Source: an uncultured Bacilli bacterium (GTDB taxonomy: Bacteria; Bacillota_I; Bacilli_A; RF39; UBA660). Taken from it: a DNA stretch of 64,000 nt. The position numbers and the translations under genes are program-made. The DNA is taken from assembly GCA_934162125.1 (NCBI GenBank), contig CAKPHU010000001.1:121352-185351 (forward strand), given 5' to 3'. Every line of letters starts with the position of its first letter. Position 1 is the first letter of the stretch. Of this stretch, positions 37,463 through 58,823 are shown one piece after another. The notes under the pieces were generated by a model. The model did no database searches. It was not told the origin of the DNA and worked only from the letters and a program-made list of their open reading frames with translations.

Positions 37463-37560
37463 TAATATATACCTCCTTCATTTTATAACTTAAGACTCGC
37501 TCGCAAGGTACAATAAATTGTTTAAAACCTTTCAAATGCGGTTTGAGCATGAGGCGTCAA
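37463..37560 (-). ncRNA. Structured 5' leader of about 100 nt upstream of rplU, a candidate L21-type ribosomal-protein autoregulatory leader
   Basis: The long leader lies between a consensus promoter and the rplU RBS and contains a hairpin (GTTTGA-cgcctcatgc-TCAAAC). L21 leaders are known in low-GC Gram-positives. No covariance model was run. Confidence 0.3.
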
Positions 37561-50475: not shown

Positions 50476-52068
50476 TTAATTATGGTATTTTTTAATGATG
50501 GCTTCTGCTACTTTAAAACCGTCCATAGCTGCGGTGGTGATACCTCCAGCATAGCCTGAACCTTCACCGCATGGATAGACACCTGCTATGTTAGAAGTAT
50601 AGTTTTCATCTCTTTCAATTCTAATTGGAGATGATGTTCTACTCTCTATGGCAGATAGAATAGCTCCTGGAGTATCATAACCAGTTATCTTTTTCGCAAA
50701 CTCAGGAATAGCTTCTTTTATTGATGAGGCAATAAACTCTGGAAGACATTCATTTAAGTTAGCGAATGTGTATGCTCCTTTATGAACTGGTTTAATATCT
50801 AAGAATGTTGTACTTTCATTATCTTCTTTAAAATCTTTATATAATTGAACTGGTACTTTACCATTTCCTAGTTTGTAGGCAGACTCCTCTAATTCTTCTT
50901 GGAAAGTAAGGCCAGCAAAAAGATCTGATCCATAATCTTTTGGATTTACAGTAACAACTAAAGCACTATTAGCATTTTCTTCTGAACGATTATAATTACT
51001 CATACCATTGATAGCTAAATGACCTTCTTGGGATGAGGCATTAACAACAAAACCACCTGGACACATACAGAAAGAATAGACTCCTCTATTTTTTTTAGTT
51101 GTATAAGTTAATTTATAATTAGCAGGAGGTAAGAGATGAGCGTATTTGCCATATTGAGACTCATTAATCATCTTTTGAGGATGTTCAATACGAACACCTA
51201 CAGCGAAAGGTTTTGGAGCCATAGAGAGGTTCTTTTCATGTAATAAATGGAATGTTTCTCTAGCACTATGACCAATAGCTAAAACAAGAACACTACAAGG
51301 GAGTTGTTCCTTATTATTGATTTCAATTGCTGTTACAGTGTTGTTTTCAATAATAAGATTAGTAAGCATAGTGTTATAGAGAATATTACCTCCATTAGCA
51401 ATTATCTTATTACGAATATTTTTAATAACTTTTCTTAAAAGATCGGTTCCAATATGAGGATTAGAGATATACATAATTTCTTCTGGAGCTCCATTCTCAA
51501 CAAATATTTCAAAGATTTTTTTACCACGAAAAGCTTTATCTTTAGACATCGTATTTAGTTTACCATCAGAGAAAGTACCTGCTCCACCTTCACCAAATTG
51601 AACATTTGAATCTTTATTTAATTTACCAGTTGCCCAGAATTCTTCAATAGTTTTTACTCTAGAATCAACATCTTCTCCTCTTTCAATTATTAGAGGTTTA
51701 TAACCTTGTTCAGCTAAAAGATAGGAACAGAAAAGTCCAGCTGGACCACTACCAACAATAATAGGTCTATTCTTTAACTCTTCACTACCAGTTGGTGGAC
51801 AGATATATTCTTCATTAGGTGAGGCAAAGATATCATTTGAAGTGTTAGACTTAAGTATTAGGGCTTCTTTAGGTGTTTTAACATCTACTTCATAAATATA
51901 GTAGATAGTGTCTTTCTTTCTAGCATCAAGAGACTTTTTCTTGATAGAGAAAGAAGTAATGTCTGATGTTTTGATATGAAGTATTTTTGCTATTTTAGAA
52001 AGCAGTACTTCATCATTTGAATTTTCTACTGGTATTTTAATTTGTCTAATTCTAAGCATTTTTATCAT
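50476..52068 (-). CDS. FAD-dependent oxidoreductase of unknown specificity (COG2509-like)
   Basis: Rossmann dinucleotide motif IVGSGPAGLFCSYLLAEQG and a second GxGxxG further in. 530 aa. Confidence 0.6.
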   Translation of the reverse strand: MIKMLRIRQIKIPVENSNDEVLLSKIAKILHIKTSDITSFSIKKKSLDARKKDTIYYIYEVDVKTPKEALILKSNTSNDIFASPNEEYICPPTGSEELKNRPIIVGSGPAGLFCSYLLAEQGYKPLIIERGEDVDSRVKTIEEFWATGKLNKDSNVQFGEGGAGTFSDGKLNTMSKDKAFRGKKIFEIFVENGAPEEIMYISNPHIGTDLLRKVIKNIRNKIIANGGNILYNTMLTNLIIENNTVTAIEINNKEQLPCSVLVLAIGHSARETFHLLHEKNLSMAPKPFAVGVRIEHPQKMINESQYGKYAHLLPPANYKLTYTTKKNRGVYSFCMCPGGFVVNASSQEGHLAINGMSNYNRSEENANSALVVTVNPKDYGSDLFAGLTFQEELEESAYKLGNGKVPVQLYKDFKEDNESTTFLDIKPVHKGAYTFANLNECLPEFIASSIKEAIPEFAKKITGYDTPGAILSAIESRTSSPIRIERDENYTSNIAGVYPCGEGSGYAGGITTAAMDGFKVAEAIIKKYHN

Positions 52069-53272
52069 CCTTTATATTTTTTCCAGCTAAAAGTCCGGTT
52101 AACCAGGCAACTGTTAAGTTATAACCACCACAGATACCATCAATATCTAGTAATTCTCCAGTAATGTATAAGTTTTGACATTTTAGAGATTCCATAGTCT
52201 CTAAATTTACCTCTGTTAGAGGAATACCACCTGTTACAGTTTGAGCTTCATAGAAAGTATTAGTTCCAGTTATTTGAACTTTAAAATTGCATAGATTAGA
52301 TAAAAGTATTCCTTTTTCTAAAAGAGTTAGTTCTTTATAAGTAATTGACTCTTTTAAATGACAATTTTTTAAAAGTGCAGTGACTAATTTATAGTTTAAG
52401 ACTTTTTCTAAATCATTAGATACTTTCTCATCAGCATAAGTAATACTTCTTTCTTTTAACCAGGTCTTTTTATCAGATATAAAAGGAAGAAAATCAATAG
52501 AGATTAGTTCTTTTTTACCTTCATCTAGTCCTCTAGATATTAAACTTGATAAATTAAAGATGCAAATACCTGATAGACCGTAATCAGTTATTTGAAGTTC
52601 TCCAGACTCTTCTTTTATTTTTTCTGTATCTTCATAAAGAGTTAAATTAACATCAGTTCTTACGCCACTTACTTCTTTAGCAAAAGGAAGAGTTGCCTTT
52701 AATTGAACTAAGGCTGGAAGAGGCTTAATAATGGTATGACCAAATTCTTTAGCAAAACTATAGCCTGCTCCATCACTACCTGTTTTAGGTGCAGCTGCTC
52801 CACCTGTTGCGATAATTAGTTTATCAGCAATAATAGTCTCATCAGTACTACGAATATAGAATTTATCTTTTTTAAAGATTTCTATAACAAGAAAATTAGT
52901 TTTAATAGTTACTTTTTTACTTAAAGCTTTCTCTAAAAGAGCATTTCTAATGCTTGAAGCTTGATTAGAGGTTGGATAATAATAACCATTCTTTATTTTA
53001 GGTATTATTCCTAGAGAAGTAAAAAAATCTCTAACACTAGTTAGGTTGTCTTCAGTTATTAGTTTTTTTATTAAATCATTATTAGTACTATGGTAATTTG
53101 TAAGTTTTTGATTATCATTATAGTAATTACAATGACCATTTCCTGTCGCTAAAATCTTTTTACCACATGAGGTATTTTTTTCTAAAATTATAACTTCATT
53201 AGTGGGAGTCTTAGCAGTTATTCCAGCAACTAGTCCAGAAGCTCCACCACCAATAATTACAATTGTTTCCAT
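52052..53272 (-). CDS. HI0933/YhiN-family flavoprotein (aminoacetone-oxidase-like FAD-binding protein)
   Basis: N-terminal IIGGGASGLVAG FAD motif, about 400 aa, and a C-terminal pattern typical of the HI0933 family. Overlaps the upstream flavoprotein gene by 17 nt. Confidence 0.65.
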   Translation of the reverse strand: METIVIIGGGASGLVAGITAKTPTNEVIILEKNTSCGKKILATGNGHCNYYNDNQKLTNYHSTNNDLIKKLITEDNLTSVRDFFTSLGIIPKIKNGYYYPTSNQASSIRNALLEKALSKKVTIKTNFLVIEIFKKDKFYIRSTDETIIADKLIIATGGAAAPKTGSDGAGYSFAKEFGHTIIKPLPALVQLKATLPFAKEVSGVRTDVNLTLYEDTEKIKEESGELQITDYGLSGICIFNLSSLISRGLDEGKKELISIDFLPFISDKKTWLKERSITYADEKVSNDLEKVLNYKLVTALLKNCHLKESITYKELTLLEKGILLSNLCNFKVQITGTNTFYEAQTVTGGIPLTEVNLETMESLKCQNLYITGELLDIDGICGGYNLTVAWLTGLLAGKNIKDDKNA

Positions 53273-53316: not shown

Positions 53317-53344
53317 TGAAAAAATCCTCAGATACGTGAGGATT
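53317..53344 (-). terminator. Rho-independent terminator (AATCCTCA-cgtatc-TGAGGATT plus TTTTT) ending the 57475..53350 operon
   Basis: Perfect 8-bp stem followed by a T-run, read on the minus strand directly after the stop at 53350. Confidence 0.6.
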
Positions 53345-53349
53345 AAACA

Positions 53350-53895
53350 TTATTTTTTATAAATTGTATAACCACATGTTAAGACAAGTAAAATACCAAT
53401 ACTTATAGGAAGAACAATTTCATCAGTAAAGGCACTTATAGCAAGAGTACTGATAAGGATAAGAGCAGTCGTACCAATTTCATATTTACCAATCTTGACT
53501 CTAGTAGGAACTATCTCTTTATCGCCCCACTCTACTCTTTGTAATTCATTCATTGCAATGTCAGCACCTAAGTCTTCACAAATATTATTTTCAATTTTAT
53601 TTAAGTCTTCTTCAGAAACATCAGGAGTATGAACAGTTTTTTTAAAAACTAGAATTTTACCATTTTCACTTTGAACTGTTTCAAATAAGTAAATTATTTT
53701 AAGAATATCTTTTTCTTTATAGGCAAAAACAATATCTTTATTTTCTAAGGCATATTCTGTTTCTCTTACAATACTTGAATCGACTTTGACTAATTCACAA
53801 AATATTTTACCATCTAAAGTTTTCTTTTTTAATATAACTTCACGATAATGTTTTTTTTTGACTTTTTTTGAGTCTTTTTTCACTTCTTTTTTCAT
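53350..53895 (-). CDS. Hypothetical 181-aa protein with a C-terminal transmembrane hairpin
   Basis: Lys-rich N-terminus, soluble domain, then two C-terminal hydrophobic helices. Last gene of the operon. Confidence 0.5.
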   Translation of the reverse strand: MKKEVKKDSKKVKKKHYREVILKKKTLDGKIFCELVKVDSSIVRETEYALENKDIVFAYKEKDILKIIYLFETVQSENGKILVFKKTVHTPDVSEEDLNKIENNICEDLGADIAMNELQRVEWGDKEIVPTRVKIGKYEIGTTALILISTLAISAFTDEIVLPISIGILLVLTCGYTIYKK

Positions 53896-53907
53896 TTTTT
53901 ACTCCTT

Positions 53908-55062
53908 CTATATTCCAAAAAGTACTTTTTCACTTTTGAAACGTTTAATTATAAAGACTATTACTAAATAAGTTAAAACTAGTGATGAAACAATGCAGGC
54001 AATTATATTTAAATAGTTAACGGTACTAGAAAAGATATCCATTAATATTTGAACGTGACCTAGTATTGGGATAGCATAATAGATTAAGTTAGGTACATTA
54101 GACTCAATCATTGAGAAGATCATTGGAGCAATAGTGATATATGATAAGATTTGAGTAGCTGCTTGAGCTTCTTTATAAGTCTTAGTATAACTAGTTATAG
54201 CTAAAGCAATACCTGATATTAGGATTGATGCGACTAGGCAGATAATGACAGCGATTAGAATACTTTCTAAGTTGATATTTATGTTGATATCTTTATAGAT
54301 CGAATAAGTATTATTACAATATATTAGACTAAGAATAGTTACTAGAAGTCCAAATAAAGATGATAATGTACTCATAACAACTGTAGCAAGATACTTGCCT
54401 GAAATTAACTCTGTTGTGGTGATAGGAAAAGTTAAAATTGTTTCTAGAGTTCCTTGTTCTTTTTCTACGGCTGTAGCTGTTGTAGCCATTGATGATGATG
54501 TTAGAGCAATAGCCATAATAATGTAGGCAAAAGCTACAGATAAGAAAGTATCTAACATAATATTTTCACCAGAAATGTATTCTTGTTCGTAAGTAAAGTT
54601 TTGATAAATTACAGCTGGATCCATTCCTTCATTTAGTAAATATTGATCTCCTAGATAACGATTATAATTATCAAGATATGTCATAAGTAAACTAGCTGTT
54701 GTTAGACCAGAATTACCTTGATCAGAATAGACTGTGTACTTATTATTATCTCTATCATAGATGAGATAGGCACTAATTTCTTTAGAAGCAAAAGCTTGAG
54801 CTAGTTCTTCTTCTTGATAGACAACTGGTTTTAGAGATAGACTTTTCATAAGTTCTTTTTCAGTACTACTTAAGGTGTAATTAACGCCTACTTCATATTC
54901 TTTAGTTTCAGTATCTTCTATATTACTATAAAGACTTGAGAAAAAGATAATGAAGAAAGCAATGAAAATAGGAACAACAAATATCATTAAAAGAGCTTTC
55001 TTATCACGAAATATTGAACGAAGTTCTTTTTTTATGGTTGTTAAAACATTATTCTTATTCAT
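53908..55062 (-). CDS. ABC-2-type exporter permease with a large extracytoplasmic loop after TM1 (NatB-like)
   Basis: 384 aa: TM1, about 140-aa loop, then 5 TM helices. Overlaps the ATPase gene by 8 nt. The size and topology resemble Bacillus NatB. Confidence 0.6.
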   Translation of the reverse strand: MNKNNVLTTIKKELRSIFRDKKALLMIFVVPIFIAFFIIFFSSLYSNIEDTETKEYEVGVNYTLSSTEKELMKSLSLKPVVYQEEELAQAFASKEISAYLIYDRDNNKYTVYSDQGNSGLTTASLLMTYLDNYNRYLGDQYLLNEGMDPAVIYQNFTYEQEYISGENIMLDTFLSVAFAYIIMAIALTSSSMATTATAVEKEQGTLETILTFPITTTELISGKYLATVVMSTLSSLFGLLVTILSLIYCNNTYSIYKDINININLESILIAVIICLVASILISGIALAITSYTKTYKEAQAATQILSYITIAPMIFSMIESNVPNLIYYAIPILGHVQILMDIFSSTVNYLNIIACIVSSLVLTYLVIVFIIKRFKSEKVLFGI

Positions 55063-55807
55063 ATTTGCCTCCTATTAGAGCAAAGAAGCTATCTCTTAAA
55101 TTAGTTGTCTTAGTCTTCTTACAGATTTCTTCAGGAGTACCTGTGGCGATAACTTGTCCTTTATTAATCATAATTATACGATCACAAATATTTTCAGCTT
55201 CCTCCATATAATGAGTAGAATATAGGACACATTTATTATTAGCCTTCTCTTCTTTAATAAAATCTAGAATTGTTTTACTAGAAATAACATCTAGGCCAGA
55301 TGTAGCTTCATCTAGAATGTAATATTTAGGATTATGAACCAGACATCTAGCAATACTTACACGTTGATATTGACCAGTTGATAAAGTAGATATTTTTTGA
55401 TGAAGAAAAGGTTCAAGAGAAAATCTTTTAGAAATTTCTTTAATCTTCTTAGGTAGTTCTTTTTTAGAAACTCCATAGTAAGAACCACACATTTCAAGTA
55501 ATTCATTAGGAGAAATATCACGATATAATTTAGTGTTACCAGAAAGATAAGCAATTTTTTTCTTGATTTCTAATCCATTTTCTTGATAAGTTTCATCATC
55601 AATTAAGACTTCTCCTTCGGTTGGAGTCATGATACCAGCAATAAGACGAAGAAGCGTAGTCTTACCTGCTCCATTTGGACCAATTAGGCCAATTACTTCA
55701 CCTTCTTTAGCAGTAAAAGATATATCATTATCAGCTTTAAATTTAATTATTTCATTCTTATTAATAGTTTTTTCAAACTCTTTTGTGACATTTTTTACTT
55801 CTATCAT
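55055..55807 (-). CDS. ABC transporter ATP-binding protein (NatA-like)
   Basis: Walker A GPNGAGKTT, ABC signature LSTGQYQR and Walker B ILDEATSGLD. 250 aa. Confidence 0.85.
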   Translation of the reverse strand: MIEVKNVTKEFEKTINKNEIIKFKADNDISFTAKEGEVIGLIGPNGAGKTTLLRLIAGIMTPTEGEVLIDDETYQENGLEIKKKIAYLSGNTKLYRDISPNELLEMCGSYYGVSKKELPKKIKEISKRFSLEPFLHQKISTLSTGQYQRVSIARCLVHNPKYYILDEATSGLDVISSKTILDFIKEEKANNKCVLYSTHYMEEAENICDRIIMINKGQVIATGTPEEICKKTKTTNLRDSFFALIGGKYE

Positions 55808-55809
55808 AA

Positions 55810-56355
55810 TTATTCTCCTTCATCAAGAGCTGTTAAAATCCAATCATAGTCAACAAGATTGAAAGATGTACCACAATAAGGACAAATTCCAGTATGGTTT
55901 GAATCAATGCTGGCATTACAACCTGGACATTTTTTAATGACACCTGAGTCTTTAGCACTTATTAATTTTTCAAAAGTTAAGTAATTAGTCTTTTCAATAC
56001 GATGGTCGTTAATGCCAGAAATATATTTTTTAGTAGTTTTGTCAATTTGGTAATCCATATAACGAGATATAAGTTTTACTTCAATAATATATTTTTCAGG
56101 AGTCTTATCAATATTTATAATTTCAGATGATTTAACATTTAACTCATCATATAATTGTTGCTGATTATTAGAATTTAATTCTTTTAAAAAGTCATTATAT
56201 TTTTCATATAAAGTAGCTGATAGTTTGTGTTTTACTTTAGGTAGATTATCAGTCATTATAGCAGAAAGTAACATAATATAAGTGTTATCTACTTTAGCAA
56301 GAAACGAACTTTCAGAGAAAGTACTATCTTCTTTTATTAATTCTTTTAGTTCCAT
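55810..56355 (-). CDS. Soluble Tim44-like (NTF2-fold) domain protein with a C-terminal zinc ribbon (CPGC...CPYC)
   Basis: The pattern F..SSF...NTYIMLLSAIMTDNL...L...LYEKY and the terminal DWILTAL fit a Tim44-like domain. The zinc ribbon is read directly. It is a paralog of the upstream gene. Confidence 0.45.
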   Translation of the reverse strand: MELKELIKEDSTFSESSFLAKVDNTYIMLLSAIMTDNLPKVKHKLSATLYEKYNDFLKELNSNNQQQLYDELNVKSSEIINIDKTPEKYIIEVKLISRYMDYQIDKTTKKYISGINDHRIEKTNYLTFEKLISAKDSGVIKKCPGCNASIDSNHTGICPYCGTSFNLVDYDWILTALDEGE

Positions 56356-57239
56356 TCTTGTCCTTTGGCCTCCTTCTTAGATAAGATCCAAGTACTGCTG
56401 TCTTTAGTAATTGTTGATTTGCAGTATGGACATTGTTGTGATGATACATCTTCCAATTTTGCTCCACATGATGGACAAGTATCATCTTTAGATTTTTTAA
56501 CTGATTTTACGAAAGTTAATTCATAATGCATTCTAACTTTATCATTTTTGTGGCCTCTAATAGTTGTATTATTAGCGTTGACAATATAATCATAGAAGTT
56601 AGTTATAAGTTCAATAGTAACAGTTAGGTTATTATTTTCTCTAGTTACTTTGGTAATCATGGCATCATTATAGACAAATTCTTTCATGATGTTCTTTTGA
56701 CCTTTTATTTTTAAAGTGTCTAATTGCATAGAATATTGATTGTATAATTCGTCAGTTGTTTTACTTCTTAATGTATCATAATCAAAGTCCATCCAAGCTT
56801 CTTGAATTTGAACTAGATCAATATAACGTTTGTCAAGAAAGTCTTCAACTGTTTTAGTTTCTTTGTCTTTTAAGTAGTTATTAAATTCATCTTCAGATAT
56901 TTCCTTATTATGATTTAGTTCTAATCTTGGAGCTAATTTTTTAGCTCTTCGTTTCTTTTTAATCTCATTTTCTAAAATTACATATATGATACATGCAATG
57001 ATGACAAGTATATTTATTAAATGATTGCTGGACCCAGACCTACTAGATCCATGGTCATGTCCCCAGTCACTGCCACCACCAGATGACCAGCCGCCACCAG
57101 AACCTCCACTATCATAATCTGTATCAAAGCCAGCATCAGTAGCGATAAATTTAGGATTGTAGTTAAAAACAGTAAATATAGATGCTACAGCAATGATAAA
57201 CAATGCAACAAATTTTAATTTTCTTTTTTTCTTAAACAT
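56346..57239 (-). CDS. Membrane protein: TM1, Gly/Ser-rich acidic extracytoplasmic loop (DYDSGGSGGGWSSGGGSDWGHDHGSS), TM2, then a cytoplasmic Tim44-like domain and zinc ribbon (CPSC...CPYC)
   Basis: Topology and motifs read directly. The C-terminal domain is paralogous to the downstream 181-aa protein. Confidence 0.45.
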   Translation of the reverse strand: MFKKKRKLKFVALFIIAVASIFTVFNYNPKFIATDAGFDTDYDSGGSGGGWSSGGGSDWGHDHGSSRSGSSNHLINILVIIACIIYVILENEIKKKRRAKKLAPRLELNHNKEISEDEFNNYLKDKETKTVEDFLDKRYIDLVQIQEAWMDFDYDTLRSKTTDELYNQYSMQLDTLKIKGQKNIMKEFVYNDAMITKVTRENNNLTVTIELITNFYDYIVNANNTTIRGHKNDKVRMHYELTFVKSVKKSKDDTCPSCGAKLEDVSSQQCPYCKSTITKDSSTWILSKKEAKGQEWN

Positions 57240-57274
57240 ATTTTTCTCCTTTTACTTATTAGATATGTAAAATA

Positions 57275-57475
57275 TTAAAGACTTGCTGGCTGATGTTGGG
57301 ATTCAGAACTGGAATTATCTTCTTTTTCTTCAACGCTAGAATTAGTTGTATCAATAGAAGTAGATATATCTTCTTTAGGCATATTGGTATAAGTTGCGGC
57401 TGTCGCAACAAGAACAAAAGCTACTAGCATTGTGACCTTTAAAGTTTTTAATTTTTCTTTTTGCATATTTCTCAC
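57275..57475 (-). CDS. Small secreted peptide precursor of 66 aa: a signal peptide followed by a roughly 35-aa acidic Ser/Thr-rich peptide
   Basis: Signal-peptide-like N-terminus (LKVTMLVAFVLVATAATYT). Preceded by an extended -10 (TGtTACAAT) and RBS GGTGAG. First gene of the 57475..53350 operon. Confidence 0.4.
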   Translation of the reverse strand: MRNMQKEKLKTLKVTMLVAFVLVATAATYTNMPKEDISTSIDTTNSSVEEKEDNSSSESQHQPASL

Positions 57476-57554
57476 CTATTATCTACATTGTAACATTTTT
57501 AAGCTTCTGTTTCTACAAACATAAAAAAAAGAACATAATCTTTACACTTTTAGA

Positions 57555-58172
57555 TTAATATTCTTCTTTATTTACTAAATATGAAACTACTACTAGTTGT
57601 CTATCATTAGTATCTTTCTTACAAGTTATTAGTGTTAACGTATTCTGATTTAAGTCTCTACTTATTTCAACAGAGCCATCTTTTTTAACATCATATATCT
57701 CATCAATGTGGTAAGTATACTTTATTCCTTCATGATAGATATAGACAATGTCATTTAGTTCTAGACGATGAAATTGATTGAAGTAAGAAATACGAGCAGT
57801 ACCATTATGGGCTGCTAAAACGACATTTCCATTTACTTCTTGAGGTAGAGAACTTTCTTTTAGAATAGCAACATTTTTCTCAATTGTATTTTGATCTGAT
57901 TCTAATGAATAAACTCCTCTTTTTAAACCAATTTTAGGTATTTCTAAGATGAGTAGAAACTCCTCTTCCTTATTGTCAGAAGGTGGAGTTTCAATATTTT
58001 CCTTTTCTTCCTCTTTAACTTTAGAAGTATTTTCTAAATAATCATTTACCTTATTATTGTCTTCTGTTGTATGCTCTTTTTCAAGAAAAATAGGAACAAC
58101 TCCAATCATTATTCCTATTATCACAACAATTATTCCAAATGCTAGAGTTTTAGCTTTGCTTTTTTCTTGCAC
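57555..58172 (-). CDS. Sortase-family transpeptidase
   Basis: N-terminal membrane anchor, catalytic His region (LAAHNG) and the TLxTC Cys motif (LTLITCKKD). GTG start overlapping the upstream gene's end. Confidence 0.7.
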   Translation of the reverse strand: MQEKSKAKTLAFGIIVVIIGIMIGVVPIFLEKEHTTEDNNKVNDYLENTSKVKEEEKENIETPPSDNKEEEFLLILEIPKIGLKRGVYSLESDQNTIEKNVAILKESSLPQEVNGNVVLAAHNGTARISYFNQFHRLELNDIVYIYHEGIKYTYHIDEIYDVKKDGSVEISRDLNQNTLTLITCKKDTNDRQLVVVSYLVNKEEY

Positions 58173-58794
58173 TTATAATTATTCCTAATCCTATTAAAAC
58201 TATGATAATTGAAAATACAATTGTATAAGGAAAACTATTACTCATAGTATCTGGAGTTTCAACAATTTCAACAGGTGGTTTGCCATTATCATATTGAGCA
58301 TAGAATGACCAATCAATATATGATGATTCATTAAACTCTGTATTACCATAACTTTCAGATAATTTTGTTTCTACAACCATTTTAGAAGTCTTTGATGGTT
58401 CAAAATCTCCTAGTAGAATTGCTTGTTGAAGATCAATTCCTTGATTAGTATAGTCAAGGCCAGTAGCCTTTCCTTCATAGATAACTTTATCATCTAATTT
58501 AATTTTCATTATGATATTTTCTAGCAACTCATCTGCTTCAGCACTTTGACTTTTAGGTACAACTTTAAAAAATAAAGTATATTTTATTTTTGTTCCATTC
58601 TCAATAGTTAATTCATCTGTATAACTACTACCAGGAACCATATCCATATGCTTCATGAATACATCTTCATCTATTAATTTGCTTTCATAATATAGACGAT
58701 CATTTTCTTCTGTAAAATATAATCTGTTTTCTTTAGCTTGTACAGATATAGTACTAAGTACAAAAACAAATATTAATAATATGATTTTTTTCAT
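58150..58794 (-). CDS. Secreted protein with a cell-wall-sorting-signal-like C-terminus (motif region VETPDTMSNSFPY, hydrophobic helix, ARKKQS tail) but no canonical LPXTG; a candidate sortase substrate
   Basis: Sec signal peptide (ISVQA|KE) and a tripartite C-terminus, read directly. Immediately upstream of and overlapping the sortase gene. Confidence 0.5.
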   Translation of the reverse strand: MKKIILLIFVFVLSTISVQAKENRLYFTEENDRLYYESKLIDEDVFMKHMDMVPGSSYTDELTIENGTKIKYTLFFKVVPKSQSAEADELLENIIMKIKLDDKVIYEGKATGLDYTNQGIDLQQAILLGDFEPSKTSKMVVETKLSESYGNTEFNESSYIDWSFYAQYDNGKPPVEIVETPDTMSNSFPYTIVFSIIIVLIGLGIIISARKKQS

Positions 58795-58823
58795 AGCAAA
58801 CCTCCTAGTCCTTTCTTTGTTAA

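Follow-up and report, generated by a model that had tools for sequence, protein, structure and literature searches.

The six minus-strand genes at positions 53350..57475 of the window analysed here, a 64-kb stretch of contig CAKPHU010000001.1 from an uncultured bacterium of the Bacilli (RF39 lineage), are numbered g1 to g6 in the order of their transcription and form one transcription unit made of parts with differing evolutionary histories. The conserved core of the locus consists of g2 and g3, which encode a membrane-anchored and a soluble protein, both with a Tim44/mL45-type (NTF2-like) domain carrying a C4 zinc ribbon. Our preferred reading, to which we assign a probability of roughly one half, is that these two form a conserved Tim44-fold adaptor pair that is co-transcribed here with an autonomous NatAB-like exporter (g4 and g5) and with the lineage-specific genes g1 and g6, and that a zinc-ribbon protein of the SPFH type is the partner of the pair in many relatives. 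Each of g1 and g6 encodes a small protein, membrane-bound or secreted, that accompanies the Tim44 pair in this lineage only.

The Tim44-like and zinc-ribbon domains had already been proposed in an initial annotation made from the sequence, and both assignments are borne out. The 297-aa long protein encoded by g2 (56346..57239) and the 181-aa short, soluble protein encoded by g3 (55810..56355) score 50.6 and 42.8 bits, respectively, against the Pfam family PF04280, the gathering threshold of which is 29.6 bits, and both contain the CxxC...CxxC signature. They are also paralogues, as had been supposed: residues 118-287 of g2 align with residues 2-175 of g3 (23% identity, E 1e-11). The g2 protein is composed, in order, of a signal peptide or first transmembrane (TM) segment (6-29), a DAGFDTDYDSGGS motif with a Gly/Ser/Trp/Asp-rich segment, a TM helix (69-95) and a Tim44-fold domain (~110-250). 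In the AlphaFold2 (AF2) model its zinc ribbon (C255, C258, C270, and C273) is inserted ahead of the last strand; that of g3 is C-terminal. This model, based on an alignment of 53 sequences, has a predicted local distance difference test score (pLDDT) above 88 over residues 110-250, and its top match in the Protein Data Bank (PDB) with Foldseek is the C-terminal domain of human Tim44 (2cw9; E 1.4e-6), ahead of mL45, yeast Tim44 and the NTF2-like domains of ARC6/PARC6. The best PDB match of the g2 sequence profile is likewise mL45 (E 0.003). The predicted structure of g2 is that of the alpha+beta NTF2-like fold of the Tim44 C-terminal domain.

Because clusters of Lys and Arg flank both hydrophobic segments in the hydropathy profile of g2, the acidic Gly/Ser/Trp-rich stretch is expected, by the positive-inside rule, to lie outside the cell and the Tim44 domain inside. 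The first of these segments, counted initially as one of two TM helices, is followed by a conserved V-x-A / DSGFD junction and may instead represent a signal peptide that is cleaved off. Compared with the Tim44 C-terminal domain, mL45 and Mba1 (PF04280), g2 and g3 share the hidden Markov model family and the predicted fold, and their domain is, like theirs, predicted at the inner face of an energy-transducing membrane. They differ by the inserted C4 zinc ribbon, by the obligate pairing of a long and a short gene, by having no link to an import motor or a ribosome, and by the additions to the long form, i.e., the signal peptide, DSGFD motif, Gly/Ser-rich external segment and TM anchor. The NCBIfam model NF033779 (Tim44/TimA putative adaptor) scores g2 at 27.5 and g3 at 49.2 bits, both under its 80-bit cut-off; this similarity is weak and covers the Tim44 domain, and the idea of an adaptor is common to both, but architecture and host group are different. 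The statement that bacterial Tim44-like proteins are functionally uncharacterised is essentially correct for the searchable literature, in which we found no functional study of Tim44/mL45-fold proteins from Firmicutes.

The distribution of the pair was surveyed in one genome per species, yielding 80 loci, or 84 together with loci fetched via homologues. All hosts are uncultured gut Bacilli labelled as Mycoplasmatota, Tenericutes or Erysipelotrichaceae metagenome-assembled genomes; the species of the window itself falls outside these representatives and the best match has only 46% identity. In 80 of the 84 loci, exactly one short gene is present and has one to six long genes next to it on its own strand, with a median spacing of 8.5 nt, and the orthologues of g3 that adjoin long paralogues have 34-64% identity. 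The four Cys are kept in every long (118/118) and every short (80/80) protein, and a [DE]SG[FWY][DN] motif, typically in the form A-DSGFDSSYDSGGS, directly follows the signal-peptide-like segment in 117 of 121 long proteins. More fully, the N-termini of the long paralogues (loci L008-L087; 57120..57140 in the window) show a near-invariant [DE]SG[FW]D-x2-[YF]D-SGG after the V-x-A junction and then a low-complexity stretch of Gly, Ser, Trp, and Asp; the motif corresponds to no known family. Since the surroundings of the pair vary widely (e.g., folD/hisS, rnpA-yidC-jag/mnmE, mraY/ftsW, ruvAB, and clpB), it is the Tim44 pair itself that constitutes the conserved unit. In several lineages, fmt and a gene for a single-pass membrane protein of ~200-214 aa without family assignment (L056:9064-9684, L064:3941-4585, L085:9367-9999, and L057:8969-9565), possibly a further partner, lie ahead of the pair.

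When the three genes on each side of every Tim44 cluster were grouped by similarity, the commonest neighbour, adjacent and on the same strand in 29 of the 80 loci, proved to be a soluble SPFH protein (Band_7_1, PF13421) of ~370 aa, which has a tail of low complexity and carries a zinc ribbon at its C-terminus; searches of NCBIfam and the PDB provided no name for it. It occurs in three gene orders (long-short-SPFH, SPFH-short-long, and SPFH-long-short), which are distributed among at least five clades when the short proteins are arranged in a neighbour-joining tree. Because these three arrangements are so scattered, the linkage seems to be maintained rather than to represent one inherited accident. 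A role of the Tim44 pair in the envelope or membrane is plausible for this reason, i.e., its recurrent position next to an SPFH zinc-ribbon gene, and not because of the exporter. In four loci (e.g., L035:7230-7826) a gene for a CDP-alcohol phosphatidyltransferase (PgsA-like) is also found near the SPFH-linked Tim44 clusters.

An anchored protein with a ribbon and an NTF2-like domain, encoded beside a soluble SPFH protein that ends in a ribbon, is also characteristic of the PspA-YdjG-YdjH-YdjI (SamGHI) membrane-stress system of Bacillus subtilis. In that system YdjG and YdjH anchor YdjI, a soluble SPFH/zinc-ribbon protein, at the membrane, and YdjG combines zinc ribbons, an NTF2-like domain and a TM segment (PMC8581546, PMC11237479). 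The domain order of YdjG is reversed relative to g2, with the ribbons first and the TM segment last. A search of the YdjG sequence, which was confirmed by exact look-up, against Pfam gave Zn_Ribbon_TF only. The sequence taken for YdjI failed such a look-up, so that its collinear BLASTP match to the SPFH neighbour (22% identity) serves as a lead only.

Within the window, the organisation of the six genes agrees with the tightly packed or overlapping unit described initially, at the coordinates given at that time. A gap of 35 nt separates g1 from g2, g2 and g3 overlap by 10 nt, g3 and g4 are 2 nt apart, g4 and g5 overlap by 8 nt, and g6 begins 12 nt after g5; each of the six genes is preceded by a Shine-Dalgarno sequence. 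The terminator scan revealed no terminator between g3 and g4 and, since nothing separates these two genes, their co-transcription in the window is very likely. Ahead of g1 there is a promoter-like site (57487..57515, minus strand), where a spacer of 17 nt separates a weak -35 (TAGAAA) from the extended -10 TGtTACAAT (TGTTACAAT at 57495..57487). The site is a consensus match, and because promoter-like sites across the scan do not exceed the shuffle expectation (42 vs. 32 ± 6), its designation as the operon promoter depends solely on its position and the TG motif; internal matches, such as that at 55836..55809, were set aside because they show no excess either. A terminator-like hairpin at 57517..57569 (minus strand; -11.5 kcal/mol, z = -3.3, then U8) closes the upstream sortase gene, and an intrinsic terminator-like hairpin at 53323..53344 (minus strand; 8-bp stem, 6-nt loop, then a T-run; -11 kcal/mol, z = -4.3) follows g6. 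With a hairpin and U-run after both the sortase gene and g6, the unit is bounded on both sides. The extended -10 and the terminator that had been proposed as its limits are thus present, but the terminator, for which none of 200 shuffles was equally stable, is real but moderate rather than strong, as only 3 of the 8 bp in its stem are GC pairs. The G+C content of the window is 31%. As 50 of its 52 open reading frames (ORFs) of at least 120 aa lie on the minus strand, the common orientation of the genes has little weight as functional evidence.

The assignment of the two ABC genes as a NatAB-like pair has held up. The 250-aa ATPase encoded by g4 (55055..55807; ABC_tran, 118 bits) has a nucleotide-binding domain (NBD) of the DrrA/ABC-2 type (TIGR01188 drrA, E 1.5e-59, under the cut-off of that model), and its gene overlaps g5 (53908..55062), which encodes a NatB-like ABC-2 permease (ABC2_membrane_3, 81 bits) with six hydrophobic segments and a large external loop of ~118 aa between TM1 and TM2 (residues ~49-166, from hydropathy). 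The solved NBDs nearest to g4 are those of ABCA3, ABCA4, and ABCA1. For g5 no solved relative was detected by sequence in the PDB, and a homologue with 53% identity is labelled “ABC-type Na+ efflux pump permease component-like” by its source annotation. The NCBIfam model NF041647, a fusion of ABC permease and CPBP protease, scores g5 at 176.7 bits against a cut-off of 435 bits; the alignment (E 8.8e-52) is confined to the permease part, at positions 3-400 of the 636-position profile, and neither g5 nor g6 contains a CPBP domain. In terms of domain families and annotation, g4 and g5 are similar to the NatAB-type systems of B. subtilis (a COG1668 NatB-like permease with a DrrA-like ATPase) in their two-gene design and in the loop after TM1, but no NatKR-type regulator adjoins them and they are fused into an operon behind unrelated genes.

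The association of this exporter with the Tim44 pair is, however, facultative. It directly follows the short Tim44 gene in only 6 of the 80 species-level loci (g4 70-77% and g5 51-55% identity). The short gene and the ATPase gene are at most 12 nt apart in L004, L014, L029, and L033, and their called ORFs overlap in L009. Since the Tim44 loci had been selected for their Tim44 genes, we balanced them by sampling from the ABC side via homologues of g5, which provided four sets of orthologous loci. In all four, the ABC genes and the HI0933-like genes downstream of them occur by themselves behind an extended -10 promoter-like element of their own, with no Tim44 genes at the locus, and orthologues of g4 (70-80% identity) are found both with and without upstream Tim44 genes. 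The closest ABC orthologue outside the species, L094 (g4 80%, g5 72%), has at least 128 nt of non-coding DNA upstream of its ATPase gene, containing TGgTACAAT and a ribosome-binding site, and has no g6. In L095/96, L097/98, and L099-101, a Sua5 remnant or DUF1015 is followed by a non-coding gap with TGTTACAAT and then by the ABC, permease and HI0933 genes, and no trace of Tim44 genes was found. L097 and L004 are 86-89% identical on both flanks; between these flanks, L004 contains a stretch of 2.45 kb with three Tim44 genes and L097 one of 435 nt. The HI0933-like genes follow the exporter in the six Tim44-linked loci where the contig reaches far enough, and this synteny is kept in all related genomes with a long enough contig, with or without Tim44 genes. 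Because the sister loci keep it without Tim44 genes, the ABC/HI0933 block is the stable unit and is able to stand alone, whether Tim44 genes are present upstream or absent. The initial annotation had named a separately transcribed, conserved natAB unrelated to the upstream genes as evidence that would speak against its view, and the sister loci largely supply this evidence; in the window, however, the ABC genes are very likely co-transcribed with g3. The -10 TGTTACAAT is common to the regions upstream of the stand-alone ATPase genes (L095:3187-3255 and L097:3180-3255) and of g1, which would fit a location of the Tim44 genes between the ABC genes and an old promoter of the latter but also a simple consensus match. 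The two overlapping HI0933-like flavoprotein genes of the window (50476..53272) have a TGtTATACT -10-like element of their own.

The first gene, g1 (57275..57466), encodes a protein of 63 aa with a Lys-rich N-terminus, a hydrophobic segment at ~11-24 and an acidic Ser/Thr-rich tail (pI 4.1), which, judging from these features, would be a Sec-type precursor or else a small membrane protein anchored by its N-terminus. It had been described as a 66-aa precursor of an acidic Ser-rich peptide, and the acidic character and a Sec-type N-terminus are borne out. Its start is not, since GTG 57475 falls inside the gene's own ribosome-binding site (aGGTGAGaaatATG; GGTGAG); with the -10 ending ~21 nt before ATG 57466, there is room for a ribosome-binding site only if translation starts at this ATG. 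The identical 63-aa product has been annotated by public gene callers on 62 contigs. The gene is retained in five strains of the species group of the window, with a ratio of nonsynonymous to synonymous substitution rates (dN/dS) of 0.21 relative to the most divergent strain, L088. It belongs to the operon unit, because it remains there in strains that lack the whole sipW-sortase cluster located upstream. No homologue was found in the other Tim44 loci examined or in the ABC loci sampled, and the idea that g1 is the remnant of a lost long Tim44 paralogue was rejected, as a profile of 116 long N-termini scores it at -0.7 bits.

Between strains, a divergence hot spot at ~56950..57360 comprises the 3′ half of g1 together with g2 codons 62-101, with 77-81% nucleotide identity against 96-99% elsewhere and a synonymous divergence (dS) of ~0.3 against ≤0.09, i.e., about threefold. 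It covers the end of the external segment of g2, its TM helix and the juxtamembrane region, and suggests either a mosaic or recombination tract or a relaxed or diversifying pressure on exposed parts. In L091 (1401-3880) a deletion joins the upstream gene for a surface protein with Flg_new repeats to codon ~112 of g2; g1, the sortase cluster and the anchor of g2 are lost, g3 has a premature TAT-to-TAG stop, and the ABC genes and g6 are intact. If real, this would indicate that g1-g3 decay together and independently of the exporter.

The last gene, g6 (53350..53895), encodes a protein of 181 aa that has a Lys-rich N-terminus and a region predicted to be alpha/beta and that carries a two-helix membrane hairpin at its C-terminus (143-179, from hydropathy), in line with the C-terminal anchor proposed earlier. 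It matches no family in Pfam, NCBIfam or PADLOC, and its AF2 model is unusable (pLDDT 43). A word-indexed search retrieved close homologues only (≥84% identity); HMMER retrieved 52 distant representative clusters with 21-36% identity, 165-200 aa and the same layout. Members of this unannotated family (P0293-P0343) share a conserved “W-x-D-K-E-I-V-P...K-I-G-K” ahead of the hairpin, and a metagenome scan for their genomic context returned nothing. None of the other Tim44 and ABC loci examined contains g6; its position in sister species is occupied by nothing or by an ABC-FtsX fusion gene. The restricted occurrence of g1 and g6, together with the rarity of the exporter, does not sustain the initial view of the six genes as a functional module for export, immunity or sensing.

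Several observations weigh against the adaptor reading as formulated above. There is no SPFH gene in the 64-kb window, and no PspA, TPM (the family of YdjH) or LemA family occurs among the 113 neighbours of the SPFH-linked loci. An alignment of YdjG with the family profile of g2 (hhalign) covers 27 columns of the zinc ribbon only (probability 65%); because nothing beyond the ribbon aligns, the resemblance of g2 to YdjG is one of design and not of demonstrable homology. The binding of g2 to g3, their location at the membrane face and the recruitment of an SPFH protein are inferred, in part from the analogy with YdjGHI. With respect to the autonomy of the exporter, the 2-nt gap between g3 and g4 contains no terminator and the arrangement is kept in six other species, genomes whose ABC locus lacks Tim44 genes may have a pair at another site, and some functional coupling of the pair to the exporter is conceivable. 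Finally, L091 is a single contig with 6.6x coverage and could be a misassembly.

Among the alternatives, a role in lipid handling is possible but unlikely. The pockets of the Tim44 fold would bind lipid or hydrophobic cargo at the inner leaflet, work together with the lipid-organising SPFH proteins, and in this clade feed or sense an ABCA-like (type V) lipid exporter. In agreement with this, a homologue is annotated by the Joint Genome Institute (JGI) as a “predicted lipid-binding transport protein (Tim44 family)”, a crystal structure of yeast Tim44 with detergent (3qk9) is among the fold matches, the solved relatives nearest to the NBD of g4 are phospholipid transporters, and CDP-alcohol phosphatidyltransferase genes adjoin four of the SPFH-linked loci. 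However, the similarity to ABCA proteins is generic to NBDs of the DrrA type, the JGI label is a prediction, and the link to the exporter is facultative.

It is quite unlikely that the six genes encode one integrated transporter, in which g2 and g3 would assist or regulate the ABC-2 exporter as subunits, e.g., by docking on its ATPase or by gating it when the external segment of g2 senses a signal from the envelope, with g1 and g6 as further membrane subunits. The close spacing of g3, g4, and g5, the lack of an internal terminator and the proximity or overlap of the short gene and the ATPase gene in the five loci named above would fit such an assembly. These arguments are offset by the four sets of sister loci in which the ABC orthologues occur alone behind their own promoter-like element, by the 74 of 80 Tim44 loci without such an exporter, and by L091, which retains the ABC genes despite its disrupted g2 and g3; moreover, tight spacing is usual in this compact genome with nearly all genes co-directional.

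A function as a tether for ribosomes or for the insertase, by which the pair would dock translating ribosomes or clients of YidC at the membrane like the mitochondrial mL45/Mba1, is decidedly improbable. It could account for mL45 being the best PDB match by sequence and for the dominance of mL45 entries among the fold matches, as well as for the position of the cluster between rnpA-yidC-jag and mnmE in one lineage, but this is only one lineage of ~80, the similarity to mL45 (12-17% identity) reflects the shared Tim44 fold, and no ribosome-binding element was identified. That the ABC-2 system exports, or protects against, a processed g1 peptide sensed by the Tim44 proteins, as initially suggested, is hardly credible, since, although a small acidic peptide gene heads the operon and g1 diverges jointly with the 5′ third of g2, the Sec-like N-terminus of g1 disfavours its export by an ABC system, g1 has neither a double-glycine leader nor a Cys, its vicinity contains no modification genes, g4 consists of an NBD alone and lacks a C39 peptidase, no other Tim44 or ABC locus examined contains g1, and no PADLOC or bacteriocin-type family was matched. 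An anti-phage defence system was rejected, as PADLOC detected only generic ATPase similarity for g4 and E-values of 0.003 or worse for the other proteins.

We return to the conserved Tim44-fold adaptor pair with a co-transcribed but autonomous exporter. Based on architecture, gene linkage and published analogy, g2 and g3 would form an adaptor or scaffold on the cytoplasmic side of the membrane, in which g2 would supply the anchor and a short acidic Gly/Ser-rich external segment, and g3 would be the soluble subunit shared by the one or several long paralogues of a locus. This pair may in many relatives recruit the soluble SPFH/zinc-ribbon protein as a membrane-organising or membrane-maintenance scaffold, much as YdjG and YdjH tether YdjI. 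The exporter in the window most likely works alone and would share only its transcription with the pair. A more far-reaching proposal, which we put forward tentatively and regard as rather doubtful, is that the long/short pair is an undescribed, widely conserved membrane-face adaptor of uncultured gut Bacilli that recruits a YdjI-type SPFH scaffold as a counterpart of the Tim44/mL45 tethers, with the DSGFD/Gly-Ser segment coupling an envelope signal to sub-membrane organisation, and that in this lineage it also controls the co-transcribed ABC-2 exporter.

Upstream of the operon, a cluster on the minus strand (57555..64000) encodes a VWA protein, a 692-aa surface protein (Flg_new, DUF11, SpaA-like), a 201-aa ORF, the signal peptidase SipW, a BsaA/TasA-like SipW-dependent matrix protein, a 214-aa ORF and the sortase. 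Strains L088 and L089 lack the sipW-sortase cluster; the last ~25 nt of the sortase gene and the terminator remain as a scar. The only Rfam match in the window is a ribosomal protein L21 leader (37483..37553, minus strand; 39.1 bits), and since it lies elsewhere, an RNA element or leader within the operon was ruled out.

The subfamily defined here, with a signal peptide, DSGFD motif, Gly/Ser segment, TM anchor, Tim44 domain and zinc ribbon, and paired with one soluble paralogue, is conserved over many gut Bacilli with small genomes, and the SPFH zinc-ribbon protein is a concrete candidate for its partner. The link with an exporter and a secreted peptide appears to be a local operon fusion, which moves attention from peptide export to membrane organisation.

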